Shown here: piece after piece, positions 3,370-43,662 of the stretch | Layout: each line of letters starts with the position of its first letter | Position numbering within the stretch: position 1 is the first letter of the stretch | Source: Blasia pusilla | Lineage: Eukaryota | Direction of reading: 5' to 3' | Assembly (NCBI GenBank): GCA_050084515.1 | Contig: CM114271.1 | Location: 40,424,001 to 40,488,000 of the forward strand | DNA length: 64,000 nt | Translations under genes and position numbers: made by a program | Notes under the pieces: model-generated | What the model was told of the DNA's origin: nothing | What the model saw: only the letters and a program-made list of their open reading frames with translations | Databases searched by the model: none

Positions 3370-3430
3370 CTTTCTCTCTCTCTTCAGAACAGCATGGAAG
3401 AAGCCATGAAAATGTCTGACCTCTCTCTTC

Positions 3431-4018: not shown

Positions 4019-5184
4019 TGTATCATTAAAAAATAGGGACACCGAAGAGTTTCCTATACCCTCTACTTATTTTAGAGGCAAATCCAAAGGAGTTCGAGAG
4101 AGGAAGTAAGTATTACCTCCTCAAATTATAGTATAGAGGAGCACAATTTTTTGAAGGAAAACTTCACTTCTTATAGACGGTCATTTTTTTCTTCTTTCCC
4201 CATATAGTAACCCACCATGTTTCGTTAATAGTATAGCTATGTGTGCACAACAAACATGTATATTGTGTAACTAGGTTTAAGTAGACAACAACTCCGTAGA
4301 GAATGCACTCAAAAAAATCGAAAGAAAAACAAAAAACAGGAAGCATTGAAGATCCAATATTGTCGAGCTATCTACAAAACCAAACAAAATGTCCAATTGC
4401 ACAAAGAAAGATGTGACAGGAGCAATAACACTTCGAACAACTTCCAAACGGTTGATGGGGTTTGGAGACAACCAAGAGTTCACCTATGTTCACTCTTCCA
4501 CTCATCTCTCTTTTGAAGAAAAACATCATTTCTTGGCACTCAACCCGACAACCATTGTCGTCGTGTTGTTTCCAGGAGTGGGGCAATTTCTTTACTGTTT
4601 CTTGTTAAACCAGCACTCTCACACAAGTTAGCTTCCAGGTTCTCTACACCAGAACTTGGAACCAAAAGCCGAGGATCAGCTCAATGGCACGGCATTGCAA
4701 TGAGTCTGAAATGAAAGCACATGTGCATACGTAACAGATCACTGGTAATGAAAGCATGGAGGCCAGAGCATATCTAAGACATCTACTTTCGCCCCTCTGC
4801 CCCGATTCAAGCTCTCATGCAATTTGTAGTTATGATGGCTGAAAGAAAAATGTGCTCCAGGGCGTAAAAGATACTTTGTCGCCTTTCCAACTCAAAGCTT
4901 TCAGGGACTACACCATCATCATGACCAGTAAGTAATTCGTACCTGAAGAATGAATGGGATTCAAAGCCCAAGCTACGGCATTGCACAACAATGATGCTGT
5001 CACCCACTCATTTGATGACCTTGTCACAGTTTGCGCTCTGCCAAATGAACCCAGTGATAATCTAATCAATGATTTCTATTGATGAGTCCCAAGACTACAG
5101 GGGAAGTCATGGGCAAGAACGGTACCCACATATGTGTGGCAGTCTCCCAAACAGGTGACAATGACAGTACTGTGACTTTGATCA

Positions 5185-8100: not shown

Positions 8101-8678
8101 ATTTCCGACGCATTCACTGGAATGCCCATGACTCTGGCAATCTCTAGTAGAAGGTCATTTGCAAAACCTTGATCGATCCTGTGTTCCCGTAGACCTTGCT
8201 CTAGCTTATTAATCACGACCAGCTTCGATTCTGATGCATGGAACTCGGCATTGATCATCTGATCTTTCAACCTGCTGACGCTAATGCTAATATCCACTGC
8301 TACTTCGGCGCTTGCGAGAGCCAAAAGTTGGAGTGACTTCCCCACATTACGTGTGATGCTTTGCGCTTCTCTAACAATGGAACGACAATTTACAAGTAAG
8401 TACATTTTTGGCTTGTTGGTGCAGTTGTCAATCAAAGCCCGGGCTTTCTTCAGATCCTCTTGAAGAGACTCTAGCGCCACTCTAACCGCTGGAGATTCCT
8501 TCAATTCGCGCTGCCTCAGGTCTACAAGCAACGGTCGTATGTCTTGTAGGAAGGTCGACAGCGTCCGGAAACTCTCCTTCTCTATCAGAACATCCTGAGC
8601 GGCGAGAGCTGTCTCCAGCACTTCAGTAGTCAACAAGGCTATTACAGTACCAATTGGGATCAGTTCGACGATAGTCAT
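5185..8678 (-). pseudogene. Plant U-box/armadillo-repeat E3 ubiquitin ligase, PUB43/44 (SAUL1)-like; 3 coding exons (8678-7446, 7254-6951, 6668-5185); frame disrupted
   Basis: U-box (PPLKSFICPLKQDVMVDPVSLVTGSCFERSAITEWF...DPITHQEL...LRSNIPVRQSIEEW), ARM repeats, C-terminal CxVHxGxC...TFC motif and end AAKVLAQL..IHEVSTYY. GT-AG introns 7445-7255 and 6950-6669. Compensating frameshifts near 6247 and 6118, and an in-frame TGA at 5647-5649. Confidence 0.88.
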
Positions 8679-9682
8679 CTTGACTCCACCTGCACAAAGT
8701 GCAAGGAACGATATTCCGAACAATCACCAACGCCTCGCGGCATATAGTCACAGAGCTGAGGTGACACAATCTGGATAACAGTGCGACCTTGCGACTCCCT
8801 TACATCTTCGGCGGCTGAGGGATCGAAGCAGTCTCGACTCCAAACTCAGCCCCACCCTGGGAATTTGCAAGTTGCCATCATCCGATTATAGAAAGAAATT
8901 GGTCACAAGCGTCTCAATCCGTTCCCTCCGCCTCCAAGTGTGGAACTAAGTACGAAGGGCTCACGGGGGAAAATACAATTAAACGTCTCCTAGCGGGATG
9001 GAAGAGACTTCGATCCACGGATCATCCGAAAATTTCTTCTCCAGTCTCTGGACTCGGTGGCACATGCATCCAAGCGAGCGGACGGAAGTTGTCCGCTAAG
9101 ACCACTACAATCGGACCGACACATTTGAAAGCCAACACCCTCCGCTCCGACTGCCCCATAACAACCAGAACTCGAAGATACGCCAGATCGCCCTCTCCTG
9201 CTCCCCGCGGCCTGTCGGTCTGCCAGTGAGCGCCATGGAGACTCTTCCAATCCGCCTGTCTCTCATCGGCATTCATGCCAGTCCGTCCGCCATGCCCCTT
9301 CCTCCTTCCTTCCTTCCTCGCTGTCATGCCATCGCCTTCTCGTTCCTGCCTCTCGCGCCTGCCTTTCTCTCTCTCTCACCTCCGTCTGCCCCTCGCTGCA
9401 TGAGGATGCGCTGCTGGTGTCAATTTGACCCGCGTGCGTCCGCAGGCGATGGTCCTGCCCGTCAATGACCCTACCCTACACTACGCTTGAGCTAAGGTTG
9501 GCATGCGCTAACATACGGGCACACTGCACACGGATACGCCAAGTGATCGACCAAACAACATTGTGAGTTGACGATCTGTGATCTCCACGTACGTGTGCGA
9601 TCAACTTTTGCAGTTCTCACGAGAGGACTAGTTAATTCTTTTTGCCCACATGTGAACGGCCTCTCTGCGGAGTTGGGCCACA

Positions 9683-10720
9683 GTGGCACCCCTCCTTTGC
9701 TCCCGCTTTTTGGTTAGAGATAGACCCCTCCTTCTACACTACGTCTCCCAGGTCGAGGATGGCTCTTTCCCATTTCAGTCTTCACTCACAGCTTGTAGAG
9801 ATTCCTTTCGAGTTGAGGCCAGAGCCGTTCTCCCCACTTTCTCCTCCTTAGTTACCTCCGGTCAGTCTGGGCTCCAATCTTCCTTGATGGAAGCCCACTT
9901 TGAGGCAGTTTTTAGAGGCACTATGTCTGACGGGAATATCCCCATGGAGGTTAGGGCCCGTATTCGCTCTTGCTCCGGAAAGGGGGCAGGCTCATGGGTA
10001 GTGGCGCGCCCCCTTCTCCAAGCTTTCCGTATCGCACCACTTACCTATACCACAGCGATGCGGTTCCGCTTGGGCCTCCCCCAACCATCGGTGGTTGGTT
10101 CGACACACTGCGAGTGTCGCCGGAGCCTGGATCCACTTGGTGTGCATTTGGCACGCTGTCGATTGGGGTGAGAGGATAGCCACTCACGATGCAAAGGCGG
10201 GATATCATGTTCATTATTGCTCGGGAGAGTGGCTTCCATGTGCAGAGAGAGAGGCACTACTCCATGCGGGATTCCCTCATTCGTGCCGATCTCTACATGA
10301 CACGTGAGGTTGAGGTGGTTGTGGCGGACGTGGTAGTCACAGATCCTACGCGGGAGGCAGTTGCGAGCCCAAGTGGTGGCCCAAGGGCGAATGCTACAAG
10401 GAGCGGCGGCGGCGGCGGCGGCGGCGAAGAAGACACATATCTCTGATCGACTACACAAGGGACACATCTTCATCCCCTCGGCCATAGAGATGTATGGGGC
10501 TATGGGGGAGAGGTTCGACTTCGTTTCTTACGGACTGCGCCCATCATCTCCACTCGAGAAATGGGTTGTCTTAACTCTGCGATTCAGACAGGCGGCGGGT
10601 CTCCATAGCGTTGCAGCGTGCCCAGGCTAATGGGATTTTGCGGCGGGCTCAGCCGTGGGAGACGCCGGCGCTAGAGGCCCACTTAGTAGTAGTCATAGTT
10701 CTCTTGTTGTTGCTGATATT
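9683..10720 (+). mobile_element. 3' remnant of a non-LTR retrotransposon with restriction-like endonuclease (CRE/R2-group type)
   Basis: AGSW..ARP...RFRLG, CCHC knuckle CECRRSLDPLGVHLARC, then THDA, RADL...VVADVVV (PD..D-like) and FIPSAIEMYGAMG, spread across frameshifted ORFs. Confidence 0.75.
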
Positions 10721-11759
10721 GTCTCTGCTGTTGGTGAGTTTCGTGTCGTTAGGGGGGGAATGCCCCTTCTTCCTTTTCTGGTCCTGTTGTGGCCTTCAGG
10801 TTTTGACTCTTTGAGTCCCCTCTTTTGTACTTCCGATGGGTTTTCCATCACTCGTTTCTATCAAAGTGCATCTTTGTTGACCAGATCTCTACGGAGTGGG
10901 AAATCTGCGAAGCTGTGGCGTTCGTCTTTCTGGGAGGAACTCGGGAAACGCAATCCCCGGCGGAAAGCTTCGACGATCGACTCCATCGCAGAAAGAAACA
11001 AAGAAACAAAGAAGAAACGGTGGCGCGAGTCTCCTCTCGAAACTTCGAAAGCGCTACCGTCGCTACCTCACCTCACATCACATCACATCACTGCAGTTTC
11101 CCAAGTGCGCTTTCCCGACGAGATAGAGAATCTTCCGGATGCGACCTCCGACTGTGCGGGTTTCCAGATCCCCCCTCACCGGTTTCGAAATCGGCGCTGG
11201 AAAACTGTACAGCAGATCCGGGGTTACGAGTATTGCTAGCCGGTTAAATTTGAGAATTCCCGATTGATTAAAAAGCCTACGAAAACCGGCTGGTATTCGA
11301 GCAGGTACTTTGTATTTCGTATCTCAAAACCGGGTTAAAATCCGGAATTACCGTTTCCGATTGGACATTCCCGGCGATGGACCGCGTCCCGCGAAAAAAC
11401 TTCCCGAACCCTGCTGTACAGAGGATATTAAGAAACAGTAATGTCTCCGCTTGTGGTGACCTGTTAACTCTACGGAGTAACCCCGACTTGTCATATGTTG
11501 GATAATAATTATTACTGATGGAATTCTAGCACCAAAGACCGGACCAGCACCTCCATAAAGCTCCCAGTCATTCATTACTTTCCACGGAGAAGCTTCCCCT
11601 GTTTCAGAGGAAGCATCGCAGTACACTTGCAGTATAATGAATGCGCTCTTGTCCTAAAATGCCACGACCGGGGAGTTATTCCCCGGTAACCGGCACTTTC
11701 CCGGTCGCATCAACGTAAAAACTCTCCAAGTTTTTCTAATCCCATCATTGGGGGTATTG

Positions 11760-12177
11760 GGCCACTCTCTGCCGGAGTTGGGAGGCCCCCGGAAGTCGTG
11801 GCAACGGCCAACGCCCGTTTGTAAGGACGTCCGAAAAATAAATTTATCCTCTTTCGGATCATATTAATTTTTAAATTATTATTTATAAAAAATTTATTAT
11901 TATTATTCAATAAAGTCCATTCGTGTGGACTATACGGAAATTTCTTCCATCCCCGTCGGGAAATGAATGGCCCTAACACGGCCATTCATTTCCTCCAACG
12001 GGGACGGAAGAAATTCCCGTACGAGGGGATTTTATTGAAAAATAATTATTTATTTTTATAAACAAGAATTTAAAAATTGGTATCTTCGTAAAGAGGAAAA
12101 AAAAGAATTGAAAGGGAGCCGTGTGGGCATTCGCCGTTGCCACGCCTCCCCGGGGCCCACTGCGGGAGTGAGTGGCC
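11760..12177. repeat. Long imperfect inverted repeat (~200-bp arms, 7-bp spacer 11973-11979)
   Basis: Core ...ggaaatgaatggcc-ctaacac-ggccattcatttcc.... Arm homology continues outward through the AT-rich blocks and gtggcaacgg/ccgttgccac to ggccactc/gagtggcc. Confidence 0.85.
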
Positions 12178-13528
12178 GTATTTGATACAAAATAGAAAGA
12201 GACATATGATCTCGGTCTGTTTTCGGCCAACGCCCGAGAGACGGGACAGTGAGGTTTCGACCGGCCAGGTCGACAGGTAACGCGATTCTCCCCACGGAGT
12301 CCTAGTCCACTTTTCAAATTTCAAGCGTGTGCGAAATTGCGAACTTGCGAAGAGTGGATATGCACGGAGTGGCTTGTCGAACAATCGAGCGGAGCAGTCG
12401 AAGCGCAGGGTGATGAACGCGGTTCGCACCGTGAGCTCCACGCCATCGCCAGAGTTACCAGGTTTCTCGGAACCCGCATCCGGCGAGGGCCAGCATTGTC
12501 TTCGATCATGCCGAGCGAATTATCGGAGTGTGCTCTACTTTTCTTGACTCATGCTGTCGGAGCGCGGAGGGCGGGGCCATTTTACCACGCTACAGGGAAT
12601 GCTACCGGTCTTCATCTACGAATCGCACATGATTTTCTACAGTATTTCTATGAGCATTCAGAGACGGGACGGAATCTCTCCAGTCTCCACCTTGAGATTC
12701 CCTCGTTCGAATCCGTCCGGTAGTGGCAGCCTGGCAGCGCTCTGTGCGCGCGTCGAACGAATGAAGCACAGCAGGACTTTCGTCGCTCTCTGTCTGCAGG
12801 AGGGAGGGAGTGCTCGTTTGTCAAAAGTGGTGGCGTAATATAGTTGTGGTATCTGCTTCACGGAATTCTGGCGTCAAGACAAGAAAGGGAGGCGGACGAT
12901 GCTACGTCCCAAAGCGCGAACATTCGAGGAGCGGGCAAGGAACGAGCGATCGATGCGGAGGAATCCTCATAGCCAAATAGGAATTTCAGGCGAATCACGA
13001 GTTCGGTAGCAGACGACGTCCAATTCTCCTCTTTCTTTACATGTGATTCAACAGACGGAGAACTTTTGCGGACATAACAGCTCGTTTCTTCTGATTTCGC
13101 CTACATCGCTCCCGCACGCACATAAACTCAAGCGCCGGTGACGATCCCCGATCACACGATGTGCTAGGTCAATCGACCATAGACATCCCTGCCCGACTCG
13201 CCGTGCTCGGTAGGTGAGCGTGGGGCAATTCTTTGTTGATACCAGAGAAACTCTGCCCGAGAGGGAGCCGCCTGAGGTGGAAAAGCCCGCCCTTGTCGGC
13301 CTATTTTTCCTCCACCAGCACGGGGAGAGATTCTGGGTTTATCGCCCGGCCGGGGAAGGAAGGAAGGAGGTGAGGACCCATTTCCGACCGGTAGACCGCC
13401 GACGCTCCGAGATATTTCCCGAGCAAAATAGCGTGTCAAACGGGAAAACGACGGCCGGTTGGTGTGGACCGTAAGAAGTTGAAATCTCTCACTGCCCTCG
13501 TCCATCCATTTGCACATATGTAGTGTTA

Positions 13529-13683
13529 TCTATCTATATTATTATTCATAACATCTCCGTGTTTATATGTGATAATCAGGCGGCATGAAAATGTTTCCCT
13601 TTTTACGGGTAACAAGAAAAAAAAATTTGTGTGTAACATGATTAGTCTCTTCATTCTTGTGCACGGCACGGGCTGCACACTAG
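13529..13683 (+). mobile_element. Non-autonomous mini-Helitron
   Basis: A|TC start, subterminal hairpin gtgc-acg-gcac, CTAG|T end. Confidence 0.55.
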
Positions 13684-14265
13684 TATACTATTATAGAAGA
13701 GGGCCCTTCATTTTTTTCAAATACTCCTCCAGCTGACTCATGGAAGTTTTGGCCCACGTTTTTTAGCAGGATACTCCCACACAAATCTAGCGCCTATTTA
13801 TCCTCGGGTTACGTGAGAGTCGAGCTAAGCAAGAACGGACACTTAGGCAAAAATGAACTCATACGCCAGATTCGAACTCATGATCTCTCGTTTCATACAA
13901 GGGTAGTTGCCCATTCTACTACATCCTCCAACACATTTAAATGGAGAATGTAACAGCTTTATTGTCATTGCATAGGGGGATTTGGGAGAGACATCGGAGT
14001 TAACTAACTCAACCTCGCGTTAGAAAACCTGAGGATGAATAGGCGTAAGGCACGCATAGAGCCCGGTATCCGAGTTGAACATGTTTAAATTTCCCTTACC
14101 CTCGCATAAATATTACTATCAATATGGACGCGAGGATTTTTTGAAACCCTACTATTGATGTACAAAGCCTCCAAGATTATCACGTTTTGAGATTTCAAAC
14201 TCACAACTCTTATCGTATTGATAGTCACGATCTTGGATTCATGAGCCATCGATGTGGACGTCAAG

Positions 14266-15100
14266 TGTCACAACCCTCATAACCAAACAAGCGTCAAGCA
14301 GAACATCAAAACTCTAGTGGGTTCACGTTAGGATGGTTGCTCATTGGAGAGATCTCTTGAAGGAGACACAAGATATGAGACGTGAGCAAGGTTGAGCGTT
14401 TCATACATTTATGGTTGCGACTAAGGAAACTTAAACCAAGCGTGAACCGAGACTTGAGAGGAGGCGAGTCTAGTTGAGAACCGATTTGGAACAAGACTAG
14501 CATTTGGGATTTTGACTGTATTTTGGACCATAAATCTTAGATCCAAGATGCGTTTGGGACAAGTAATGTCGTGGGCCAACTCTCCTTGAACGTCAATCTC
14601 TAATGTTGCAGAAGCGTACGTTCAGTAGGACACGCTCTCATAGCCGATCTACATGCCAATGCACTCACGTTAGTCTAGCTTTGGGTCAAGCAGCTTTCCA
14701 ACTCACCGAGTCCTCAACTCGGAATCTCATCAAGCTCAACCTTTCTTACTTCCTAGGTTCCCAACATGGAAAGTCTTTCAAAACTTGGAACAGACTTCCT
14801 GGTTAGTCTAGGAACCTAAAACGGCACTTGCGCGCCTAGCGGTTCCAACTGTTCAACAGACCTCGTGCAAGTTCCTAACCGGGACCCAAGTAATTGAATC
14901 GCGGGTTGGAATCCAAGAGGGATCCCTGAGAATCACCTCAATAGGCTTGGTTCAGGTTTTCAAGCCCAACTCCCAAACTCCCGATCTGTTCCATGCCCTT
15001 GAGCCGCCCCACGGCGTCCAAAGTGGGGTTCGAGTCCCAAGCACCCTTGGAGACCTTCTTACTAGTACTTCTAGGGTTCTCCAATAACCCCTCCCCTTTA
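14266..15100 (-). repeat. Probable 3' LTR (14266-15086) and PPT of an unrelated degenerate LTR element; non-coding internal remnant continues to ~16690
   Basis: Minus strand reads purine tract AAAGGGGAGGGG, then TATTGG (decayed TGTTGG) ... TGTGACA. No partner LTR in the window. Confidence 0.4.
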
Positions 15101-16694
15101 GAAAAGGATGGTCGGGCCCTTCATTGTGGCCCTCAACCTGACTCTACTTACAGTCGTTTTTGGATCGTTTCTCAGCCGCTACTCATGCGTTTGTAGAAAT
15201 CTTTAGTGTGTCTGAACCAGCTTTCCATAAGCTTAATTTCCAACGCATCCTTACTTTTTCCAAACGCAAATGGCGCTAAAAGTTATGGCCATAAATATAG
15301 TCGGAATCTCTCAAACGCTAGTGGCGTCTCAAATCCGGATTCCTTCCTTTGGTGACCCACTTCCTAGACTTGACTCCTGCCAAGTCTTGATCTGCATTTG
15401 GTCCAGGTTTCTCAGTCGCGACCACAACATATGAAACGCAAAGCCTCGTTTGCGTCTCGTCTCTTGTCTCTTCTCCGAGACCACTCCAACGCGCAAACCA
15501 TCCTAGCGTGAGCCCGCTAGTGTTCTGATGTTCTGCTTTGGCGCTCATTTGGTCATGAAGGTCGCGACAAGTAAGGTCGCATTGGAAATCTTATGCAAAG
15601 CCTGTTCCAACTCACTAAAGATCTTAGAAAACGCACAAGCAAAAGTAAAGAAACTACCCACAAACGATTGCTTGGGGAGTTGGGTTGAGGGCCAAAAGAA
15701 AACGCCCAAGAGTCTTTTCCCAAAGATTAGGGGGAGGGTGGAAAACCTCATAAGTGCGAGGGTCTCCAAGGGTGATTGGAACCCAAATCCTCACTTTGAG
15801 GCAAGTGTCATTAGGCGAACCAAGGGCACAGAATGGATCGAGAGGTTGGCGTTGGGATATGAAACCTGAGCCAAGCTAGTCCCATAGAGCGGATTTTGGA
15901 GGTCACTCTTGGATTCCAACCCGCGACTTATTTAAGCGGATCTTGGTTAGGGGCTCATCACTCATGCGAGGTCCATTGGAGATTTGGGACTGCCATGCAT
16001 GTGAACTTTGTTTTAGGTGTTTGGACTATCCAAAAAGTCTATCCCAAGTCTCAGAAGACTTGCCTCTGTTGGGAAGTGAGGAACTATGAAGGTTGATCTT
16101 GATGAATGGCCCGAGGCAAGGACTCGAGGAGTTGGAAGGCTGATTAATCCATAATAGACTAACGTGATTGTGTTTGGATGTGCTAGATTCTCAACATCCA
16201 CTTCTCTCAGTACCATTAGTCCGATCATGCTTATATGAGGAGAAGCATAGATTGATGGTTCCAATTTAGACATCGCAAGAGTCATAGTAATATGACGTAG
16301 TTGGTTTATGGAGTAGTGTTACTATGATTATCTAACCCTATATTGCATGAGGGTGTGGGGCACCCTTATGCATTGCGAGGGATCGGTGGTGTAGCTCCTA
16401 GTATGCCGAGACGATACGAGATGCAAATGACCCCGGAAAAAAATTCTATGAATAGAAATGAAAAAGCGCGATGGCATAAAGAGCGCAAATTCATGACCTG
16501 ATGAAATGGTCACCCATTTCTAAAGACAAATGTATCTGATTGAGCAGATGTAAGAAACAAGAGTTGGAAGATACCCCTCCTTGGGGAAGGAGGTTAAGCC
16601 CACTTGACCATGCACGATTCGGTCATGCTGGAAGTTATTTTCTTCATTCTTAGGGAGAGCCACACATAGAGAAGGGGTATTTTCCAAGGCCATT

Positions 16695-16831
16695 TGTCGT
16701 GCGCATACATATCGCTACACAACATACATCGCTGGTCACATCTACACCACACAACACCGATCTTCCCCACACACGGGTCGATCCACACATGTATAAAAAA
16801 TCAACTCATACATATACATGGAGATCACACA
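16695..16831 (-). repeat. B2 terminal repeat (137 bp, TG...CA)
   Basis: Nearly identical to 17317-17453. Confidence 0.92.
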
Positions 16832-16832
16832 A

Positions 16833-17314
16833 CAAAAAATAAAGAGTATTAAAAACGGCACACCCGGCGTAAAACTCCACTCCTCAATCTACATCGGCAT
16901 ATCGAGCCTCATCCACCTTGTGCTATCAAGGAATCCGGACGCTAGCACCCTAGTCTTAGCTCACACACATACAAGGGAGGTGCTCCAACGGCCCAACATG
17001 AGAAAGATAGCTTAGGAAAGCCATCTTCCTCTCTTATATAGGGTTGGGAAGAGCCAAAAGGCTCTTTCCCTAAAAATAGCCCTCCCCTTGGTAACCTACA
17101 CGCACAGGTTACCAGGGGCGGGTGACCTGGTCAACAAGTCATCCGGATGTAAAAGAGCTCAACATGAAAGCTGTCAGAAACGATGTTCCTGACACAATGG
17201 ACCTATCCTCAACCTCATCCGACACCGTGGGAAAAAGTTACACTCAAGATAGTCCGCTAGCTCCTACGCCCTATCCACGATAGATCTCGGCCTATCGGCT
17301 ACTTAGATGTGATA
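16833..17314 (-). repeat. A2 repeat (3' LTR-like segment, ~480 bp, TATA at 17034-17040)
   Basis: 16834-17038 matches 25858-26061, and 17252-17314 matches 36807-36870. Confidence 0.9.
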
Positions 17315-17316
17315 AT

Positions 17317-17464
17317 TGTCGTGCGCATACATATCGCTACCCAACATACATCGCTGGTCACATCTACACCACACAACACCGATCTTCCCCACACACGGGT
17401 CAATCCACACATGTACAAAAAATCAACTCATACATATACATGGAGATCACACAATCACCCCCCT
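17317..17464 (-). repeat. PPT (17455-17464, AGGGGGGTGA) followed by B1 repeat (17317-17453)
   Basis: A purine tract immediately precedes TGTGTGATC. The same arrangement occurs at 36873-37002 and, decayed, at ~46221-46337. Confidence 0.85.
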
Positions 17465-17531
17465 AGCTGGCAGTTGGATCCCCCCAACTCCAGATAGAAA
17501 ATATCACATCTCTCTAACATGACCTACTACC

Positions 17532-20500
17532 CTATACACATCTCGGACACATCCATCGTCCCGTGGGAACCACATCAAGAGGGGGGGTCAGACATGACAT
17601 ATGCCACCCTCGAGAACAACCATCACATACCAACATGGTGGCTGCATCCCTCGCAGATCCGCACAACATACACCTCAAGCATGCAGGTACCACCGCCAAG
17701 CTCGGATCCATTGTCCCATCTACGTTCGGAAGATGACATGGTGCACAATTGCGCATATGATCCTTCCAAACCATACCATCCCATCCCTCCAACATGAGGA
17801 CTCCGGTCGATAATACCTCGCACACACGTAGGATCGTGCGCCCTACAGTGACATCTAGCGTCGTGGGTGCCGCCTGCTGTAAATACACGTAATCTCCAGG
17901 ATGAAACCTCCTAATCCCTGGACGATAACCTCCTCCATGAATGGTCGCGTACCTCAATGTATCTCTATGCTGGGCAATAGCTAAGTTCTCAAAGGCCATA
18001 GGCATAACTCTACGAAAAACTTCTGCCCTCTGAGAACATGCTTGTACCCACACATCTGGATCATCAAGATCTAACACCTCCGCCATGACACGTCGAATCG
18101 CTGCAGGTAAATCTGGCTCTCTCCCAAAGAGCAAAAAGTATGGTGAAAATAACGCCAATCATGCCTGCCGACTAAAGCGATAACCCATAGCCAACCATGG
18201 CAACTGTAGGTCCCACTCCCTCAACTGTCCCCGCTGCAAGCCATCCTTGCGCAATCCTCTCTTCACCATCTGTACCACTCTCTCCGCCAACCCATCCGCC
18301 TCACGAAGATCTCTGGACGTGGTGCGGTGATCTATCGGCACCTGATCAAACAAGGCCTGAAACTCTCCCCTGAACTCGGTACCCTGGTCGGTCAACACCT
18401 CCGCCGGTGCACCAAAGTGACTAAGCACACGATCTAGAAACGCATAAGCTGTTCCCTCGCTTGCCTTGTCTGGTAGTGCCACCAACTCTATCCACTTGAA
18501 GAAATGCTCCACCATGACCAACACGTACCTATGATGACGCACTGTCAATGGCAAAGGTCCCGCAAAGTCTAAACTCCACCGATAACCTAAACCCATAATC
18601 GGCAAAGGATGTAACTGCGGATTGGGAGCATTGAAGGGTGCTTGCACTCTGTCACATACCATACATCTGGCCAAAAACTTCCGTACCCCAGTATGCATGC
18701 CGCGCCACCAATACTGAACCTGGAGTAAGCTGTAAGTACGCTTTACTCCGAAATGTCCCAACTCCTCATGGGCATGTCGCACTACACGTGCTCGCTGGGA
18801 AGGATGAGGTACCACTCGTATCCTACCATCTCCCCATACCCACAAAATGTGAGTCCCCTCCCACTTGAACCTCTTGGCTCTCTGTAGGATCCGATCTCGC
18901 TCCCTAGCACTCACTGTACTCGCAATGACGCCAGTGGGCAAGAACTCCACAACCTCCACGTCGTCATGGATATCACGACTACCTGTCGCCTCCTCACTAA
19001 CCTCCGGATCCAAAGACTCATCATCCAACCCCACCACTGGAGTCATCACTTGTGGCTGACCTGCCATAGTCAACCAACAAAGATAGGCAAATGCATGCCA
19101 ACTGGGCACCATCTCCTCATCACTCTCTCCGTGCCATCGAGCTCCTGTGTCGTCTCTCTGACTCGGACATGGGTTACGACTCAACCCATCCGCATCCTGG
19201 TTCAGCCGACGTGGCCTATGAACCACCTCAAACTCATACTCCTTAAGTAATAGAGCCCACTTGGCAAGCTTTCCCGTAAGCTTGTCGGACTCCATCAACC
19301 ACCTCAACGGTTGATGATCAGTGATAAGTGTGAAAGGGTTGCTGAATAAATAGCACCTAAAATGTGCCACGGCCCACACTGCAACCAAGCACTCTCCCTC
19401 GTAGGAGTTGTACTTCGCCTCTGCAATGTTGTTTGATCGGCTCGCGTAAGCCACAACGAACTCCCTCTCCTCGTCATCCCTTTGAGTAAGCACTGCCCCT
19501 AGACCCAACATGCTCCAATCCATATGTAACTGGAATGGGCGACCCCTAACCGGTCTCTGTAAAATGGGTGAGGACGTCAACCTGTCCTTGAGCTCCTGAA
19601 ATGCTCGCTCCTGATCATCTCCCCACAACCAAACCTGATCAAGTCTCGTCAACAAGGTCAAAGACTTTGCGATCGCACTAAAACCCTTGACATACCGTCG
19701 ATAGAAGTTTGCCAGTTCGAGAAATGCTCGGACTCGACTCACATCTGTAGGGCGTGGAATCTGCGTAATAGCCTCTACCTTTGTCTGTTGAACGCCTAAC
19801 CCACTCGGGTATATGGTGTGTCCCAAGTACTCAATCTGCTCCTGAAAGAATCTGCACTTGTTTGGATGTAACTTCAGGCCATGTAACTGCAATCGCCGAA
19901 ACACCTCCTCCAAGTGTCGCTCATGCTCCTCAACCATGGAAGTGAAGATAAGAATATCATCTATGTCACATCGTACAAAATCCAAGCAAGCTAGAATCCT
20001 ATCCATCACTCTCTGAAACTGTGCAGGAGCGTTCTTCAACCCAAATGGTAATAACCGCCACTGATACAAGAAATCTCTCCCAAACCGATCTATCCCCCAA
20101 AATGTTGTCTTCTCCCTGTCCTCCAACCTGATAGGAAGCTGATGATAGCCAGCACCGAGATCTAAAGTACTGAAGATCTTTGCATGCCCTACCGCATCAA
20201 AGATCTCCTCAGGAGTAGGCATGGCCACCGTCGACCTCGTCATTTCGGTTGATAGGACGGTAATCTCCACACATCCGCCTGTCCGTCCAATTGCCATACA
20301 TATCCTTCTTCGCCGACATGACTGTGACAGATGCATACTCCCCATGTGATAACTCCATAAGTCTTGCCTCCAACAAGTCCTGACTCCTGCTCTGAATCAA
20401 GGCTCGCTCCATATCAGAATACCTGTAGGGTCGACGAAAGATTGGCGTATCACTAGCCAACTCAATCCGTATCCTGGGACCCTCAAGCGTACCCAAGTCT

Positions 20501-20607
20501 CTCATACTGAAAGCAAAACAACTGACATGCCCTCTCAGAAACCTATGAACTCGCCGTCGCTCTCCTCCTATCAACTCGAGACCTATCACATGCTCCCAAG
20601 TCTCCAT
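17532..20607 (-). pseudogene. pol: pol: reverse transcriptase, RNase H, DDE integrase, C-terminal PHD finger
   Basis: RT: STLDLGAGYHQ, LPFGLKNAPAQFQ, (Y>D)IDD. RH: DWSMLGLGAVL, ECLVAVWA, TDHQPL, DADGLSR. IN: H..H/C..C, SLDFAGP, TDQGTEF, DGLAER. PHD: C4HC3 CMLC..LVCDGCSRGWHMSCL..WMCPRC. One frameshift (~20250) and a stop at 18159. Confidence 0.95.
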
Positions 20608-20924
20608 CGTGACCTCACTCGGAGAGGACGCAACCTCCGGCTTTGGTTGCTATGTAGCAACCCTAGCCACCTCCGCAACAGCCACTCCACTCTGACCTCC
20701 TACACCATGCTCCACATCCAAAAACTGAACATGTGCTACTCTAGCCGCCTTCGCACTCTCTGCTCGAACGACGCCCCAGGAAGTCCATGGATGCCTGTCT
20801 CTCCTCGTCTCGCTTTGACCAATGCCTGTCTGATGACCACGTGAGGCAATGGTCCAACTCGTGGACGTGACGGCATGGATGACACTCGCATCCGTCTCTG
20901 CTCAGCCATACCTAGGCTGACTAT

Positions 20925-21865
20925 CCATGTGAGACAATTGAGGTCCATCGCTGCCCCAACACCTGTCTCCGGAATGCCTCAGTCATCCCTCGCACCGCTG
21001 TAGTTCTGGTAGTGAACCCCATGGCGCGCTCGCGCTCATCTGCTGTAGGCTCCTCCAATGCTCCGGTCACCTCATCCCAAATCATGCCTGGCCCTCCCTC
21101 ACGAAAGGCATGGGATACTCGGAAGCTCACCAACGTAGGTAAGGCTGCCCTCAACTCCCCCACTCTATTGGCCATGGCCAACGGTGGTCTATCATCCCGT
21201 GTCACCACCTGAGATCGACGCCCTGAGCCCAAAATAGCATCTACTGTGAGATGTGGTGCTCTCTGGACTCCACCGTATGCTCAACTCAATACCTCTGATG
21301 GTATCAGGTTCGTCCACCACAATCGTGGACGATGGGCACATGACCCAACTCTTGCTGCATCTAACAACACAGCAGGTCCCAACCAAGACCTCACCTAATG
21401 TACACTCGTCATCACACGTGCATGAGTGCCTCCCAACAACGGCACGTTCTCCAAAATATACGTTGGAGAACATATCTGACTCTCTTGCAAGTGTCGTACT
21501 ACTCGCAGCATCTCCTAAAACATCCATGACCTCGGATCCTGCAATCCAAATCCTCGGCCAGCTGATGAATGACCCTGACATGGCCATCCAGCAATCACCA
21601 AATGAATGGTGCCAACTCTATCCAGATCCTGCGCCCCCACCAAAGAGATGTCGGCGGGTAGCGTATGCTGATATCCCCGTACTGCAGATACCGGCAACAA
21701 CTCAGGAAACCTCTGGACCAATCTCGCCACGTGACGTAATGATACTCACCGCGCGGTCTCATCTCTCTCCACAAAAAAGTACTGATGCACCCGTATGCCT
21801 GCCTGCAATAGTGCAGCCAATCCGGTGCTAATCCCTCCGAAGAGATCTAACACCCTAACACCCTC
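20925..21865 (-). pseudogene. C5 cytosine DNA methyltransferase domain (DNMT3-like) embedded between protease and RT
   Basis: In one frame with several nonsense codons: motif I VLDLFGG (21833-21853), II FVE, IV AGWPCQG (~21572-21592), VI YILENV (~21443-21460), VIII AHRPRLWWTN (~21308-21338), IX ERERAMGF (21014-21037), X RRQVLGQ(A)MD (~20945-20970, across a 1-bp frameshift). Confidence 0.93.
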
Positions 21866-22242
21866 CTCTGGGCATTGCCACACAATAGGTGTGGTATCTA
21901 GTGGGGTCATCGTCTCCACTCCAAGAGCCCGATCGCCACATGACTCTCGCTGCTCTGGGATAAAAACATGACTCCATGCCTGCCTCACGCGGTCGTCGGC
22001 ACTCCTCTATAGCTCTCAAGTTGTACCCCACAATGGTGAAGAGGCCTCGCCAACATGGGAAGAGACATCCGCCATGGCCTGTCTCTCCGTGGGACTATCC
22101 GCTACTGGGACATCCTCCGCATGTGCGTTCCCCTCCAACAACTCTCCTGGCCAGCTAACACTACCTGTGAAAGCTGCCAACGTGGTCACAGACTCGCCTC
22201 GTGATCGACCACCTCGTCCCGCAAACTGCACGGGTAACTGAC

Positions 22243-24732
22243 TCATCCTGGCGGATAAGAAACGGTCTCCTCCCAGAAGTCAAGGATGAATCCTAGGGGA
22301 TATAACACTGTACTCCCCACCAACACATCGTACGACTCATCTGGTGTTGTAATCGCACGTGTGCGCACCATAACACTATCCGTCGCATGCTCTGGCTGGA
22401 CTCTGACAACAATCTCCTGTCGAGTCATATATTGAGTGGGTGATACGCCCCCAATCGAGGTCTGTATGTGGAAGGGACAAGGCTCAATGTCGGCCTTCCA
22501 TAACCCCAACGCTAAACACGCCGCCTTCCCTAACATCAAGGGTTGCGCTCCCGAATCAAGTAGGACGCGCTGCGGGTGGTATATTGTCCCCGTCGGACTA
22601 ACCAAGCGAAATACTCCAGCTCGGTTATCGAGTAACACTACTCCATGAGTCATTGTTGCTCGCTCTATGGCCGGTCGAGCTGGCATATCTACCAACTTCG
22701 CCGCCGCCGCATGCCATGACTCTGTGGGGAACGTCCCAAGCACCGGCTCTGAAGGCAAGTCCACCACCTCCTCAACTACCTCTGAACAAGAAGCAGTCAT
22801 CTCTCCACGCTCACACAATATGGCGGCCAACCGGAACACCTCAGCTGGTCCAACTCCCAACGTCGCCAACTCTATGGCGGAAAATAGTGGAGTCTGACTC
22901 ACTCTGGTGGCCACCTCCAACACTATGGTCAACACTGACTCCACTCAAGCCGGCATAGGAGTTGTCACTCCAACTCCTTGTGACGTCGACGTAGGTGCCT
23001 AAACTGTAGGCACCGGTGGTAGTCGAGGCACCATCGATGGTGTGTGTAGTGCCTCCGACAATGTGAACGACTGTGGAACCCAAGCCTGCCGCCCATCGGT
23101 CCCCTCTGGTGGGTCAATCTCAACTCCACCTCTCGATGGCTCGGTGCCTCTCGTAGCACCCCGAGTCACCACTGCAGCTGCCTCAACCTGGGCTGCACTA
23201 CACCTAAATCCCATACTGGCGAGATCCTCACCCGGATCAAGGTAAGAGGTAGAAGTTGGAGTCACACTAGCTACTCGCAGCTCTGTGCCTTCCCTAAACT
23301 GCATCATCGTCATGACAGCAATCCTCTGCTCCAACTGATCGATGCGTGAGAGAAGTGCCAGCTGTGGTGCTCCTGCTCCATCTCCTCTGGCTGGTGGTGG
23401 TCCTCTACCACCACGTCCAAGAAGAACTCCCCGACCTCCTCCAGGACGACCGCCCCCACGCCCTCGGCCTACCTCTGGACGTGCCCCTCGGCGAAGGTCA
23501 AAACATCTATCCCTAGTGTGACCATATTTGTGGCAATGGTCATAGTGGTACTGTGGTGGGGCCATCCTCTGTGGCTCCTGAGCAATCGGAGGCGCTAGTG
23601 GTCCTCTCCCATGTTGTGGGCAGTCTCTCTGCCTATGGGCCCCTCCACACGTCCAACAAGACCACATCGGTCCCTGCTGGGCAACATATGTAGGTGCGGG
23701 TCGTTGCCTCATAGGCTCACAGTACCCGCCCTGCTCTCTAGGCACACTGGCCCGCTCCTCTGGTACTGGTGCTCGCTGTGGCACCTGTGGGGTCACCGTC
23801 GCTCGTGGACCCGTCGACTCTCGAGAAAATCCAGCGGTCACTACCTGCTCCTCACTCATGTTGAGCTCAATACGCTCAGACAACTCAAAGACCACCTTCA
23901 ATGTGGGCTTTGCTGTGTGAATCAGCACCGCATCTCGGACTCTCCTCCGTAGTTCTCGGTCCAGAACCCCGTACCAATACCGGACTAACTGCGCCTCAGT
24001 CACTCCAAACGTAGCAATGATCAGCCTCCTCATGCGTGTGAATGCCTCTCTCAGACTCTCACACGATCGTCGCTGAAAATCTTGTAGACTCTTCAGCTTG
24101 TCAGTGCGTACGCCCTGGTAGCTCTTCCCCAACTTTCGGAAGAACTCCATTGTGGGGCTGAAGCTGGGTGGCCCTCTACCACCAGAGGTCTTTGCCACAT
24201 CGCCTGTCTCACTGCCCTCCTCTCCATCTAGTCTCTCTCCTCTCACAATCCCATCATATGCCTTGCGACCACTAGTGGACACATACCCTGGAGCCCAATA
24301 CATCCTCCAAGCATCAATCTCTACTGAATATAGTGATCGAAACTCCATGTAGTCATCCATCGGAGGACCCTCCAAGTGCTGGAATAACCCCTTCCATGCC
24401 ATGAAAGGGTTGAACCGTGTCGGGGTCCGTATCTCCTGGAAGTCGCACCATGTGTCAAACTTCTGGATAAAATCATCTAAGTCGATGGTGCCCACTGCAC
24501 CCGAGAAATGACGCATGCCCCGCTGGCCCATGTTGTCCATCTCCTGCCAAGTTCTATTGTCTCTGTCTGTGATCTCTACACCAGACCCAGTGTCCAGTGA
24601 TGACGATCCAGCCACGGATGGATGTCGAGGTAGCTCCTCACTGGTAACCCCTCGGTATCTCACTCCACTCCGTGTCACACCACTACTACTGCTCGCACTA
24701 CCCCGTTCTTCCAAACCTTGGAAGAACGCCAT
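22243..24732 (-). pseudogene. gag: gag (two zinc-knuckle-like motifs) and aspartic protease of element 1
   Basis: 577-aa ORF with CWTCGGAHRQRDC and a second degenerate knuckle, plus an RGG-rich region. It continues in the same frame past a stop at ~23000 into VLLDSGAQP...DVLVG protease. Confidence 0.9.
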
Positions 24733-25854: not shown

Positions 25855-26745
25855 TGTAAAAATAAAAAGTAGTAAAAACGGCACACCCGGCCTAAAACTC
25901 CACTCCTCAATCTACATCGGCATATCAAGCCTCATCCACCTTGTGCTATCAAGGAATCCGGACGCTAGCACCCTAGTCCTGGCTCACACACATACAAGGG
26001 AGGTGCTCCAACGGCCCAACATGAGAAAGATGGCTTAGGAAAACCATCTTCCTCTCTTATACTCGCGGGTCTCACTTCCACACAAATGCCCCATCACGTG
26101 CGAAAAAGTTAGGGGTTTTTTAATTGCGTCCCTCGGAAGACTTATTAAGTTTTGTGGAAGAACAATAGGGCATAATTTATTCCATCAAACTCTTATAAGA
26201 ACAATAGGGTATTTTTTATTAGTCTTCCTTCCATGGAAAATGTTAAGATAAGATAGGGTTTATACATGTCACATCTACATATATTAAATAATTTTTTTAC
26301 AAAAATTAGCTTCCCTAGCTAAAAAATCAAATTTATGGAAAAGCTTTAGAGGGAAGAAGGGAGTGCTTACTTTCAAGTTTCCCTCTCAATTTTAGTTGGG
26401 TTTGTTGGGTCTAGGGTTTTAGCCTTCGGAGACAAGCTTTGAGCGGCAAATTGAGCCGCAACTTGAAGCCCCTTCCGAGCAGAGTGCACAACTTTCTCAG
26501 GGAGTGGTGGTGCAGCGTGACTTGAGTGGCGCAGCAGGAGATCGTGGCGTAGCGTGACTCGAGTGGTGCAGCAGGAGAGCGAAAGTGATCGGGAGTGGCC
26601 CGGCAGTTGGTATGCTACTTTTTTTCTTGCTTTCTTCTATCATGCCTCTATTCTTTTGAGTGCTTTCCTTTCCTTCGTATCTGATTACACAGCGTAGTTG
26701 AGGGCGGAGGATGGTAAGCTTTATGGCTCTAGATCAGAGATGCAT

Positions 26746-31552: not shown

Positions 31553-31904
31553 TTATTGAATACGATAGAGAAATTTTGTAGGTAAGCACAATGGGTCTAT
31601 AGTTTCATTACATATTTCAGGTGTAAGATTTTGCACAAATTACTTTGATGTTTTCAGGAGTTTTGTATCTTCAGACTCAAAACTATAACTCATGTTGAAT
31701 GGACATTTTGGTTAGGTTGTAATGAATTAAATGGATTAAGTCTTGAAGTTGGAATGAGGATAGTTATTTGATGTTATGTATGGCTATCAATTGTTGTAGA
31801 AGCATAACAAACTTTGATTTGTGACCTCTTTTGTTTGTTGTTGTGGTACATGACAGGTTGAACTACATATATGACAGTTTGAATGCCTTTGACACCTTGT
31901 ACAA

Positions 31905-34900
31905 ATGGCAAACCCTAGTTCCAACTCAATGAGACTAGTAGAAAAGACCGCGGAAGGGAAGGATGATGTACCAATTTGTGTGTTGTCCTTCAAAGAAGGA
32001 CAAACACTGGCTGACTTCCGCACTCGATGTGCTAGGGCAGTTGACTTTGAATTTGATTTTTGGGATGATAGGCTACCAGGTAGAGTTAGACATCCTATTG
32101 AGAACCTCATTGAGATTAGTGAACTTGAAGGGAGTGTTTTTGTGATTGCACAACAAGCCTCTGGATGTATTGGGGGGGTTGCAATTGTGTCCTCGCATTC
32201 ATCTGCTGCTACTGTGTCTATCATAGAGGACACAAATGTTGGGTCTCAATCACATACAGAAGCCACAACCCAAGAGCAAGTAGTCAATACATTGCCTGTC
32301 ACAGATTCATTTGAGTCAGTGCTTATGTCTGAGGTTGCAGCAAAGAGTTGGAATGAAGTGTGGGGCAAGCTTAAAGATTGGGTAAAGCGACAAGGATATG
32401 ATGAGCATAAGTGGAGAGTGCGAACGTGGGATGAGGGGAAAGATGTCCGAGGGCACCTAGAGTGCTTAGAGTGTCGGGAGACTTATGGGAATGCAGCTAA
32501 TTCCCAAGTTTTGAAATCAATTGCAAATTGCTTCAGCAATTTCAAGACTAAACATCTCAACAACCCTAAGCACAAGGACAATTTTTGTAAGAGACGGGAT
32601 CTGCCTAGTACATTGATTTCTCCTAGTGACATTATACAACAACTTCAATGGGATCATGAACATCAGATCACCGTAGGTTTAGGAATAGTTGAGAAAATGA
32701 ATGTAGAGGTTGGGGGTGAGACACTAGTGTTCTCTATGACGCCATCTGTTGCTGATACGCAGTTTGCACACAATTCATACCTGTTCAAGGTACGATGTAT
32801 AATCTGTGGCAAGTTGCACACAGACATGTGTCCAAGAAAGGCCAATTTGGAGCATAATCTACGACAAAACTTGGTTATTCGTGATCACTTGGATGCTCTT
32901 GATACTAGAGAGGTCACTGCCCAACTTGTCTTGAGGTCTGGGAAGAAGGGAAGACCAAAGAAGTCGGATCCTAGGGACTTATTTCCGTCTCAAAATTCCA
33001 TTACCAAATTCTTTAACCCTGATGCCTTCAAGGAAGGAAGCAGTTCAGGAAAAGGTGGGTTTGCTTCCTCCATTGATTTTGGACTAAGTTTGCTTTGTTG
33101 GGGCTTCTGGGAGTCAAACGTCCAATGGAGTGGAGAGTTGATGGATGTGAAGGCCATACTAGATGATCAGACAAGAGGAACTATTTAGGATTGTGAGCTT
33201 ACCACTTCAGCGCAAGTGTTCAACCAAAGTCGTAGGTCAATTGTATGTATACAAGGTTGTTTTAGGCACAAGCTTTGCTCTAGATTGTCAAGTAATGAGG
33301 GAGGGTTTGAGAACCTCACTTGTAGTCATTGTGACTCCATTAAGCGGGAGGATGATTTTCGTGGTCGGGTGCACAGGGAAGCGGAAGCTTTAGTGCATAG
33401 AGGAGGCATGACAACTCAAAGAGGGGTGGCCATGAAGTATTTGACCAAGACAGAGTTGAGGGAGCATGTGGGAAAATTGAACACTCAATTTAGGAGACAA
33501 CGTTGGATTTTGGCACAACAATCACAAAGAATTTGTGCCTTGAGTATTAGGCGAAAGAAGCTAGAAGACTTGTTAAGAGTAGCTTCAAATAGGAAAGATT
33601 TGAGACTATTTCTTAGGAACGTAGTAAATGGACATAGGGATGCGGCATTTGGTGGTAAGGAGGGGTTGTGGGATTTCCTGAAAGATGTGGCTAAGAATTT
33701 GCAGAGAGTGGCCAATGGTTATCGTTATAGTAAGAGAACCAAAGCTTTTTCCCAAGCCATGTTCCAATTTGGTGGCCGACAAGTTGCCCACTGCTTTCAA
33801 GAAAACTTGGGAGGGCCAGGTCTGAAGACCTTGAAACGTGACAGAGCAAAACTACCACCCTTTAGAGCTAGGCTACGAAAAGAGATATTTCAAGAGGTCT
33901 CCCGAGTACTATTTGCATAAAAAAAAACTACTTGGAATCGAGGGAGATGTGCCTGTAATGTTCGCTGAGGATGAAACAAGGATAAAAGAAAGGCCAAGGT
34001 GTGTTTGAATCTTTGGAGAAAGTTGGCCTTGATATATGTATGGGTATGCTCTAACATAATGATTATATTAATTTGCACATTTATATGTCATGTTTATTGT
34101 TTTCTATTAGGCTTATGTTCTAACTTGATATTTTTGTTGTGATAGATGGGAGGCTAAATATGACACGCTTATTGGTTTTTGTGGTCCCTCGGAAGAACAT
34201 ACATGCTCTTTTGGCTTGGAAGTACTTTTTGGGGAAGGTAATGAAAAGTATGATAAAATTGTGAGTACTTTTGAGAAATATGCGAAAGGTATGTATGCTA
34301 GAGTAGTAATTGTGAATCCTTTGCATGAGAAAATGCCAAAATTGGCGCTCTGTGCCACCGCAACTTGTAATCGATTCAAAGCAGATTGGGTGAGGGAACA
34401 TTGGGTGCAGCTGAAATCCATGTCGGATGAATATTGCAGAGCCAGTGTTGGTCCTTTATTGGGGCATGCAAGTGATGGTGATGCTCGTCGTAGGAAATTA
34501 ATGATGGAAGATTATACTGGTATGAATGGTTCTTTTCCAAGGTATCAAGTAGGGTGGGAAGGGTGGCAGTATTCTGTGTCCATTCTTCCAAATGGAGACT
34601 TGTATGGCTTTGGAGACCAAGATCCACCCCACAATGGGAAAAAGGCTATTAACCCATTGGACCGATGTGCTGCCATGCTAGTGCTTGGTAACCAACATGC
34701 ATCGTTGTCCTATGTGACGTCAATTTATAACCATTATAAAATTGAGGAGCATCGCTTGAACTGGGATGATGTGAATAGGACCCACAGACAGAACTGGGCT
34801 TGCCCACAACGGATAGCATCTAGGAGAGTCCAAGCCTGCCTACACCACATGTTTGAGCGGCAAGATGTTCGACATGATAGAAGTTTTGGGACAAAGTTGT

Positions 34901-43647: not shown

Positions 43648-43662
43648 TAGCGGATGATTTTA

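Follow-up and report, generated by a model that had tools for sequence, protein, structure and literature searches.

Cytosine methylation is the main weapon of plants against transposons, and given this role a transposon with its own de novo methyltransferase is a paradox. The closest described case is KnitGypsy-Dnmt3 of the charophyte alga Klebsormidium nitens, an element that combines DIRS-like repeats with Gypsy domains (de Mendoza et al. 2018, Nat Commun 9:1341, PMC5890265). In the legends to its Figs 1 and 4 the repeat arrangement of that element is given as "A-coding region-B-A". Its text places the cytosine methyltransferase (DNMT) in the Pol polyprotein open reading frame (ORF), with a Ka/Ks below 0.2. 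The same text describes SymbioDIRS-Dnmt3 and SymbioLINE-Dnmt from Symbiodinium, treated there as an independent acquisition, and reports de novo CG methylation in yeast by two SymbioDIRS domains. "Streptophytes (Gypsy-DNMT3)" are named in the text of bioRxiv 10.64898/2026.05.21.726589 and DNMT3s embedded in retrotransposons are mentioned in that of PMC12344493. Here a stretch of 64,000 nt from the liverwort Blasia pusilla (assembly GCA_050084515.1, contig CM114271.1, positions 40,424,001 to 40,488,000; the window) was analysed. Its minus strand carries a Ty3/gypsy-type element of 9.4 kb (26061-16694) with a DNMT between protease (PR) and reverse transcriptase (RT).

The window element is very probably a decayed Ty3/gypsy-type copy encoding its own DNMT3-type methyltransferase, of the Gypsy-DNMT3 kind, in a liverwort genome. 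For the explanation as a whole (element relic, family and proposed mode of action) the probability was put at roughly 0.8. The kind is already known, and the preliminary description of this locus was correct in taking retrotransposon-borne DNMTs as established, as the text of PMC5890265 attests. What is new is the land-plant host group. The window element may be a variant, as its DNMT closes ORF1 and is followed by a leaky-stop context.

KnitGypsy-Dnmt3, as described in PMC5890265, and the window element both have an intronless, non-permuted DNMT3-type enzyme inside a Gypsy-type element, two repeat sets in a DIRS-like A-coding-B-A-B layout, and purifying selection on the DNMT (dN/dS of 0.09-0.18 in relatives of the window element). 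The window element differs in its liverwort host, where the family is highly repeated. Its DNMT also follows the protease and closes ORF1, before a leaky-stop context, and is not in the Pol ORF named in the paper's text. The window element may belong to the lineage of the Klebsormidium element, as the preliminary description supposed; the match between them is in the published repeat layout. By the same paper's account, SymbioDIRS-Dnmt3 and SymbioLINE-Dnmt are likewise retrotransposons with cytosine methyltransferases, and SymbioDIRS shares the A-coding-B-A-B repeats and the DNMT3-type domain. SymbioDIRS has a tyrosine recombinase and SymbioLINE an endonuclease, in contrast to the DDE integrase (INT) of the window element. 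Chromoviruses resemble it in carrying a C-terminal histone reader on the integrase, which is a chromodomain there and a PHD finger here.

No land-plant report of such elements was found in the full-text literature; supplements may list some. The papers searched describe Gypsy elements of this kind from an alga only. Published work on Marchantia DNMT3 gave no mention of a retrotransposon-borne DNMT among the texts found, and nothing relevant was found on PHD-bearing Gypsy elements in algae or on readthrough in plant long terminal repeat (LTR) elements. The Marchantia family proteins are public and labelled "hypothetical protein".

The DNMT3-type C5-cytosine methyltransferase catalytic domain lies at 21865-20925 on the minus strand, with motifs I to X in canonical order. 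Minus-strand frame 22009-20640 gave a methyltransferase-like translation that was uninterrupted apart from stop codons. The following motifs were read in this single-frame translation.

21847-21833, minus strand: motif DLFGG
21589-21572, minus strand: motif GWPCQG
21451-21443, minus strand: motif ENV
21337-21314, minus strand: motif AHRPRLWW
21145-21131, minus strand: motif ALPTL
21037-21014, minus strand: motif ERERAMGF
20971-20951, minus strand: RRQVLGQ

GWPCQG, ENV and AHRPRLWW are the catalytic motifs IV (P-C), VI (E-N-V) and VIII (R-x-R), respectively. Motif X was present, as had been claimed, but the string first given for it, GQRWTSIV, is partly a frameshift product. The relatives have LGQAMDLNCLTWI and the window has AMDLNCLTWIVSLGMAEQRR one frame over. 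In the window AMDLNCLTWIVSLG stands in the next frame, across the shift near 20951-20960.

The window translation, with stops written as X, matched PF00145 at E 5.3e-9 with 36.4 bits (curated cut-off 22). This supplied the significant profile match on a repaired translation to which the preliminary description had looked. In this broken copy the match spans only positions 48-118 of the 324 in the profile. A search against all PDB chains gave 41 distinct matching sequences, of which the best 29 were all DNMT3A, DNMT3B or DNMT3C (E 4.7e-11 to 1.6e-5). Lower matches were M.HaeIII and M.HhaI (E 2e-3 to 7e-3) and plant DRM (8e-3). No DNMT1 or CMT chain in PDB matched at E<=0.01. The DNMT from the intact relative P0001 ranked the PDB chains as the window did. 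Its nearest Atlas models were chordate DNMT3 clusters with a TM of 0.75-0.76 over 282-284 residues, which serves as a lead only.

The DNMT3A alignment was colinear, with query 4-189 aligned to chain 6-171 and query 278-311 to chain 235-268. For the permuted DRM, the C-terminal half of the chain (230-345) aligned to the N-terminal half of the query (4-125). The motif order in the window is therefore canonical and not circularly permuted; the colinear alignment and the single-frame motif run both bear out the earlier call of a non-DRM order. Host DNMT3 enzymes (the DNMT3A/3B structures; MpDNMT3b, Mp5g09290; PpDNMT3) have the same catalytic motif order and are the best sequence or model matches. 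The window domain differs from them in being intronless, embedded in a transposon ORF and without a visible PWWP or ADD domain alongside. It also has approximately 100 extra residues between motifs VIII and IX compared to DNMT3A (query 189-278, chain 171-235). No Pfam match to the PWWP or ADD reader domains was found in the window ORFs, and none is listed for the relatives. The sole reader module of the element is the PHD finger after the integrase.

On the coding strand the element comprises A1, ORF1 (Gag, protease, linker, DNMT and a short tail), TAG CAA CCA, ORF2 (RT, RNase H (RH), integrase and PHD), a polypurine tract, B1, A2 and B2. Its parts are as follows.

25858-26061, minus strand: repeat A1, 5' end of the element, 96% identical to 16835-17038
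22246-24540, minus strand: first part of ORF1, Gag and aspartic-protease-like, by tblastn with residues 1-742 of the Marchantia protein P0003
20952-22249, minus strand: ORF1 linker and DNMT, one frame off Gag-PR, with six stops
20653-20951, minus strand: ORF1 tail after the DNMT (AMDLNCLTWI..., then weakly conserved), with one or more additional frameshifts near 20800-20850
20644-20652, minus strand: in-frame stop and 3' context between ORF1 and ORF2, TAG CAA CCA, which fits UAG-CAR-YYA
18162-20649, minus strand: ORF2 RT, RNase H, integrase zinc finger and integrase core (RVT_1, RT_RNaseH, RT_RNaseH_2, Integrase_H2C2, rve), with one frameshift
18159-18161, minus strand: premature TGA at the boundary of the integrase core and the post-integrase region, where intact relatives are open
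17535-18158, minus strand: post-integrase region and C-terminal PHD finger (PF00628, E 1.6e-11)
17458-17468, minus strand: polypurine-tract-like AGCTAGGGGGG just upstream of B1, conserved in metagenome locus L040
17316-17454, minus strand: repeat B1, 98% identical to 16694-16832
16835-17315, minus strand: repeat A2, of which 16835-17038 matches A1 and 17039-17315 is without a 5' partner
16694-16832, minus strand: repeat B2, 3' end of the element, which pairs with B1

ORF1 is open from an ATG at 24540 and has a CCHC knuckle near 23658 and a protease-like LLDSGA at 22563-22546. The window Gag and protease-like ORFs had no Pfam match of their own; their relatives carry PF13650, PF13975 and PF00098. 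RVT_1, the two RNase H models, Integrase_H2C2 and rve were all found by Pfam in one ORF of 745 aa (20396-18162). The preliminary description had placed the DNMT between protease and RT inside a retrotransposon polyprotein. Its neighbours were correctly given, with LLDSGA upstream and RT downstream, and the DNMT is inside the element. The word polyprotein has to be given up, since there are two in-frame ORFs with a conserved stop right after the DNMT.

The order PR-RT-RNase H-integrase (DDE) is that of Ty3/gypsy elements. Two identical LTRs flanking the coding part, also typical of these elements, were not found in the window element, and its repeats are split as A-coding-B-A-B. Metagenome locus L040 has the whole A-coding-B-A-B layout. 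There A is 342 nt and B 113 nt, B1 abuts A2, AGCTAGGGGGG precedes B1 and the ends of B are similar. The bounds of A2 in the window were set by this layout. Only the last 204 nt of A1 match A2, and no A1 similarity extends past 26061. The 5' part of A1 is probably truncated or interrupted, with its first approximately 277 nt gone. The intact loci L028, L031 and L046 showed no terminal repeats, and their contigs probably end at the repeats. No primer-binding site was identified by eye downstream of A1. Joints from 16833/17453 to approximately 25850 were not taken as evidence of circular forms, as they are the ordinary B-A junction of other copies.

The window copy is a dead relic. The linker and DNMT frame (22249-20952) holds six stops, three TGA and three TAG, all in frame.

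22016-22018, minus strand: TGA in the linker just upstream of the DNMT
22007-22009, minus strand: TAG in the linker just upstream of the DNMT
21746-21748, minus strand: TGA inside the DNMT domain
21515-21517, minus strand: TAG inside the DNMT domain
21395-21397, minus strand: TAG inside the DNMT domain
21281-21283, minus strand: TGA inside the DNMT domain

The element has at least four frameshifts, near 22246-22250, 20951-20960, 20800-20850 and, in RT, 20230-20273. A DNMT domain broken by nonsense codons and by frameshifts at its ends had been described before, and this agrees with the four inner stops and the first two of these shifts. The Gag, protease and RT-RH-INT parts are free of premature stops. 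At stop sites 21516 and 22018, the two of the six that were tabulated, nearly all other copies in the window organism carry another letter by contig depth, so these two stops are private to the window copy. The paired repeats differ at 8 of 204 nt (A) and 3 of 139 nt (B), and by this divergence the insertion is old but not ancient. Decay aimed at the DNMT as a habit of the family was considered and rejected, as 26 related loci show no stop bias. Their stops run at approximately 1 per 100 aa in Gag, linker, DNMT, RH, INT and PHD, with 0.70 in PR and 0.48 in RT.

The same domain was found in many other copies. A word-seeded search gave 41 longer proteins at E<=1e-3, the best of which were 60-66% identical across 96-98% of the query. 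Fourteen were from Marchantia polymorpha (for example Mp_4g09160 and Mp_8g17980), one each from Calypogeia fissa, Sphagnum fallax and Closterium, and 24 from metagenome or run assemblies. The relatives in Marchantia, Calypogeia, Sphagnum and Closterium have the gag-PR-DNMT-RT order of the window. An exhaustive HMMER search over 1.84 billion cluster representatives gave 3191, 781 and 203 matches at E<=1e-3, 1e-10 and 1e-30, respectively. The hundreds of clusters and two domain orders show that, across the green lineage, Gypsy elements with a methyltransferase are far more common than the literature found would suggest.

Contigs from two DNA runs labelled as the window organism covered all 30 bins of the element at 85% likeness. 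Summed depths over the DNMT bins were 2,394-4,078 (X5) and 6,599-23,646 (X1), with dozens of distinct contigs over single places in the DNMT. Depths in the thousands mean that the family has a high copy number in this organism and that other copies carry the DNMT. Its presence in other family copies, a point raised in the preliminary description, was thus seen in the relatives' proteins, the cluster representatives and these contigs. A host DNMT3 fragment or pseudogene lodged in a single copy by nested insertion or transduction would fit the DNMT part being in just one of the three copies or fragments in the window, the others being truncated. Such a one-off capture is extremely improbable and was rejected. 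The gag-PR-DNMT-RT order recurs in 14 Marchantia models, Calypogeia, Sphagnum and approximately 45 metagenome loci, many contigs of the window organism cover the DNMT part, and in relatives the DNMT is intronless and in frame with linker and tail.

Two stranded RNA runs with the same species label placed 2,125 and 2,042 reads on the element, nearly all in one orientation. With the first mate on the plus strand, depth was 1.7-14 over the DNMT bins and 15-47 over RT-INT, compared to 0-5 in the opposite orientation (for example 46.6 vs 0.45 in bin 19116-19442). This would be the sense strand if the libraries are of the usual type. Most reads (1,954 of 2,125 and 1,814 of 2,042) were less than 95% alike, and 171 and 228 were at least 95% alike. 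The transcripts therefore come mainly from other copies.

The ORF1 proteins P0038 (Sphagnum), P0003 (Marchantia) and P0001 (Calypogeia) were compared over aligned positions. Moss-liverwort identity was approximately 65-67%, no lower than between the liverworts. This could reflect strong constraint or transfer between bryophytes.

Domains of the window element were located in 191 family proteins, later 285, and fell into two architectures. Type I, PR-DNMT-RT, was found in 56 proteins, among them the named relatives of the window element. Type II, RT-RH-DNMT-INT-PHD, was found in 140 proteins with 29 more probable (P0162-P0406), and its named members are the chlorophytes Scenedesmus, Monoraphidium and Cymbomonas. 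In locus L046 type II is one open ORF of 2092 aa (1115-7390). Sixty family proteins were too short for a type call. The post-integrase region and the PHD finger are common to both types.

Both DNMT trees were unrooted and built from family domains only, without host DNMT3. With 231 near-full DNMT domains, FastTree gave a starred set of 52 rows (support 96), made up of the window, 41 type I domains and 10 domains without a type call. A quick IQ-TREE search with 103 rows placed all 46 type II rows in a set of 66, together with 20 uncalled rows (SH-aLRT 93, not starred). There the window grouped with Calypogeia, Marchantia, Sphagnum and two unnamed proteins (100), and the Closterium fragment fell in a neighbouring type I group. 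The trees show that the domain order changed about once; they do not give the direction.

This split bears on a separate capture, in which the bryophyte elements took up DNMT3 independently of the Klebsormidium lineage or the two architectures arose from different captures. In its favour are the two domain orders, PR-DNMT-RT in the window, Marchantia, Calypogeia, Sphagnum and Closterium and RT-RH-DNMT-INT in Scenedesmus, Monoraphidium, Cymbomonas and many metagenome contigs, and the tree split itself, with 46 of 46 sampled type II on one side and 41 of 41 type I on one side. The algal DNMT is placed "into the Pol polyprotein ORF" by the text of PMC5890265, compared to the Gag-PR ORF here. No Klebsormidium-named protein was among the relatives retrieved (the 41 longer relatives, 22 cluster members and 112 further proteins). 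The common backbone speaks against it, however, as the post-integrase region and PHD of the window match both types. The DNMTs of both types are 37-46% identical to that of the window and have features in common beyond the canonical motifs (for example ALPTL...ERERAMGF), and the A-coding-B-A-B layout of the Klebsormidium element is also seen here. One capture followed by one domain move is the simpler reading, and separate captures appear quite unlikely.

Residues were counted in 230 near-full DNMT domains that are 32-68% identical to the window domain. All but one (229) retain the catalytic Cys, and 229 retain each Arg of motif VIII; within ENV, E occurs in all 230 and N in 220. The residue before the catalytic Cys is E instead of P in 104 of the 230 (10 of 41 type I, 69 of 134 type II). 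dN/dS was estimated by the Nei-Gojobori method (NG86) for the DNMT domain of eight uninterrupted natural copies, six pairs of which had a usable dS. One pair gave 0.12 at a dS of 0.27 and four gave 0.11, 0.09, 0.18 and 0.16 at a dS of 1.4-1.75. The sixth, two sister copies of a decayed family, gave 0.94, as expected after death. Between L028 and L031, dN/dS was 0.12 in PR and 0.12 in DNMT, 0.33-0.35 in the linkers and 0.02-0.04 in RT, RH, INT and PHD. DNMT constraint in this pair equals that of the protease, exceeds that of the flanking linkers and is below that of RT, RNase H, integrase and PHD. The DNMT is a family trait with almost invariant catalytic residues and is under purifying selection in the relatives, a point likewise raised in the preliminary description. 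The values agree with the Ka/Ks below 0.2 given for the algal Gypsy element in the text of PMC5890265.

The selection need not be for methylation of the element's own DNA copy. The DNMT might mark host chromatin or the new insertion (quick silencing, a tolerable copy number), act on RNA or be just a nucleic-acid-binding module. Alternatives of this type are discussed in the text of PMC5890265, and the E for P before the catalytic Cys in 104 domains is unusual among DNA C5-methyltransferases. The Klebsormidium Gypsy DNMT domain gave no methylation in yeast, a result its authors judged inconclusive (text of PMC5890265). The near-invariant Cys, ENV and RxR nevertheless weigh against a purely structural function, and the nearest solved structures are de novo DNA methyltransferases; cDNA and chromatin as substrates are not separated by the present data. 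Another selected role was judged unlikely.

In the intact metagenome loci L028 and L031, ORF1 (Gag-PR-DNMT) and ORF2 (RT-RH-INT-PHD) share a frame with one TAG between them. The two ORFs of L028 are 1369 and 1047 aa. The junction stop, taken as the first upstream in-frame stop, and its 3' context lie as follows.

L028, 5083-5091: junction stop
L031, 4661-4669: junction stop
Window, 20644-20652, minus strand: junction stop

Junctions were compared in 33 metagenome loci and the window (n = 34); three more loci were excluded as the match fell short of the ORF2 head. Of the 34 junctions, 26 have TAG and 8 TAA as the stop, and in 33 CAA or CAG comes next. Eight junctions, the window (TAG CAA CCA) among them, carry the complete CAR-YYA. 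This stop context is retained where flanking protein identity is just 40-55%. Because of the single in-frame TAG after the DNMT, gene models end there in 29 of the 191 family proteins.

The text of Firth and Brierley (2012, PMC3542737) describes UAG-CAR-YYA as the signal for type I readthrough in tobamoviruses. The window junction resembles the tobamovirus type I leaky stop and gammaretrovirus gag-pol in having UAG, CAA/CAG and a pyrimidine-rich codon between an abundant upstream product and the replicase or RT. It differs in belonging to a plant retrotransposon, in following Gag-PR-DNMT and not Gag, in reading CAA CCC in most copies and in being a prediction from sequence. Programmed readthrough at the DNMT/RT junction is a fairly likely prediction. 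The leaky-stop context after the DNMT suggests the amount of the enzyme and its destination.

Under the proposed mode of action, ribosomes would mostly stop at the leaky UAG to give Gag-PR-DNMT and a minority would pass on to the full fusion with RT-RH-INT-PHD. Methyltransferase would then be made in approximately Gag-like amounts, with RT-RH-INT at a fraction of that rate. The enzyme would enter the particle as part of the Gag precursor and methylate the fresh cDNA of the element, in the particle or in the nucleus. The integrase's PHD finger may choose insertion sites by reading histone tails. Methylation of cDNA by an element-borne DNMT is a hypothesis of de Mendoza et al. (set out in the text of PMC5890265). 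The preliminary description likewise proposed that the enzyme could act on the element's cDNA or insertion site. As the selected function here, cDNA self-methylation is a tentative suggestion that was put somewhat below even odds. A fuller proposal is that bryophytes (including Marchantia) and zygnematophyte algae hold a distinct undescribed variant. Its DNMT would have moved from Pol (RT-RH-DNMT-INT) to the end of the Gag-protease ORF before the leaky stop, where it would be made in structural-protein amounts, packaged with Gag and set to methylate the element's own cDNA before integration. As a whole this was considered somewhat unlikely. If the packaged DNMT does methylate the cDNA, a land-plant retrotransposon writes its own epigenetic mark. 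Gypsy-DNMT elements are abundant and transcribed in liverworts, which makes the question testable in a transformable land plant.

Several points weigh against the reading of the window element as a relic of a self-methylating Gypsy-DNMT3 family. The window copy is unable to make the DNMT protein, its RNA is mostly from other copies and no intact copy was demonstrated in the window genome. To our knowledge, no enzymatic activity has been reported for a Gypsy-borne DNMT3, and the yeast result given above counts here also. The label DNMT3-type was suggested by PDB and Atlas matches and not by a tree with plant DNMT3 and DRM. Four of the five pairs with low ratios had a dS of 1.4-1.75, close to saturation, and just six sequences supplied all six pairs. 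CAA CCC, which falls short of the full YYA, was found in 23 of the 34 junctions, many of these loci are near-copies of one family and hence not independent, and the predicted readthrough was read off the sequence context. Six of the seven premature stops fall in the linker and DNMT, which make up 18% of codons (P about 2e-4 to 5e-4, post hoc). This clustering could indicate a mosaic copy, or a sub-lineage spreading with a dead DNMT.

The window holds further fragments of related elements, and one host gene.

36875-39603, minus strand: second, truncated copy (part of RT to B1) without the DNMT part, 88% identical to 17348-20076
45100-46052, plus strand: rearranged fragment of a related element, without the DNMT part
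46782-48412, minus strand: rearranged fragment of a related element, without the DNMT part
336-1050, minus strand: gag-like fragment, without the DNMT part
5188-8723, minus strand: host gene for a U-box/MCAfunc/armadillo E3 ligase, PUB43/44-like

The Marchantia polymorpha and Riccia fluitans orthologues of the U-box gene were 73% and 69% identical to it, respectively, and those of gymnosperms, lycophytes and angiosperms at most 59%. With its nearest orthologues in liverworts, the gene confirms the land-plant host named in the preliminary description and places the window in a liverwort distinct from Marchantia polymorpha and Riccia fluitans. Long ORFs of 431, 243, 308, 119 and 365 aa lie at 31893-36484 on the plus strand, and the three that were scanned had no Pfam match. 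Copia-like ORFs with gag-like and RT-like translations occupy 40021-44694 on both strands. Several runs labelled as air metagenomes contain part of the window stretch, with shares of 0.14-0.29.

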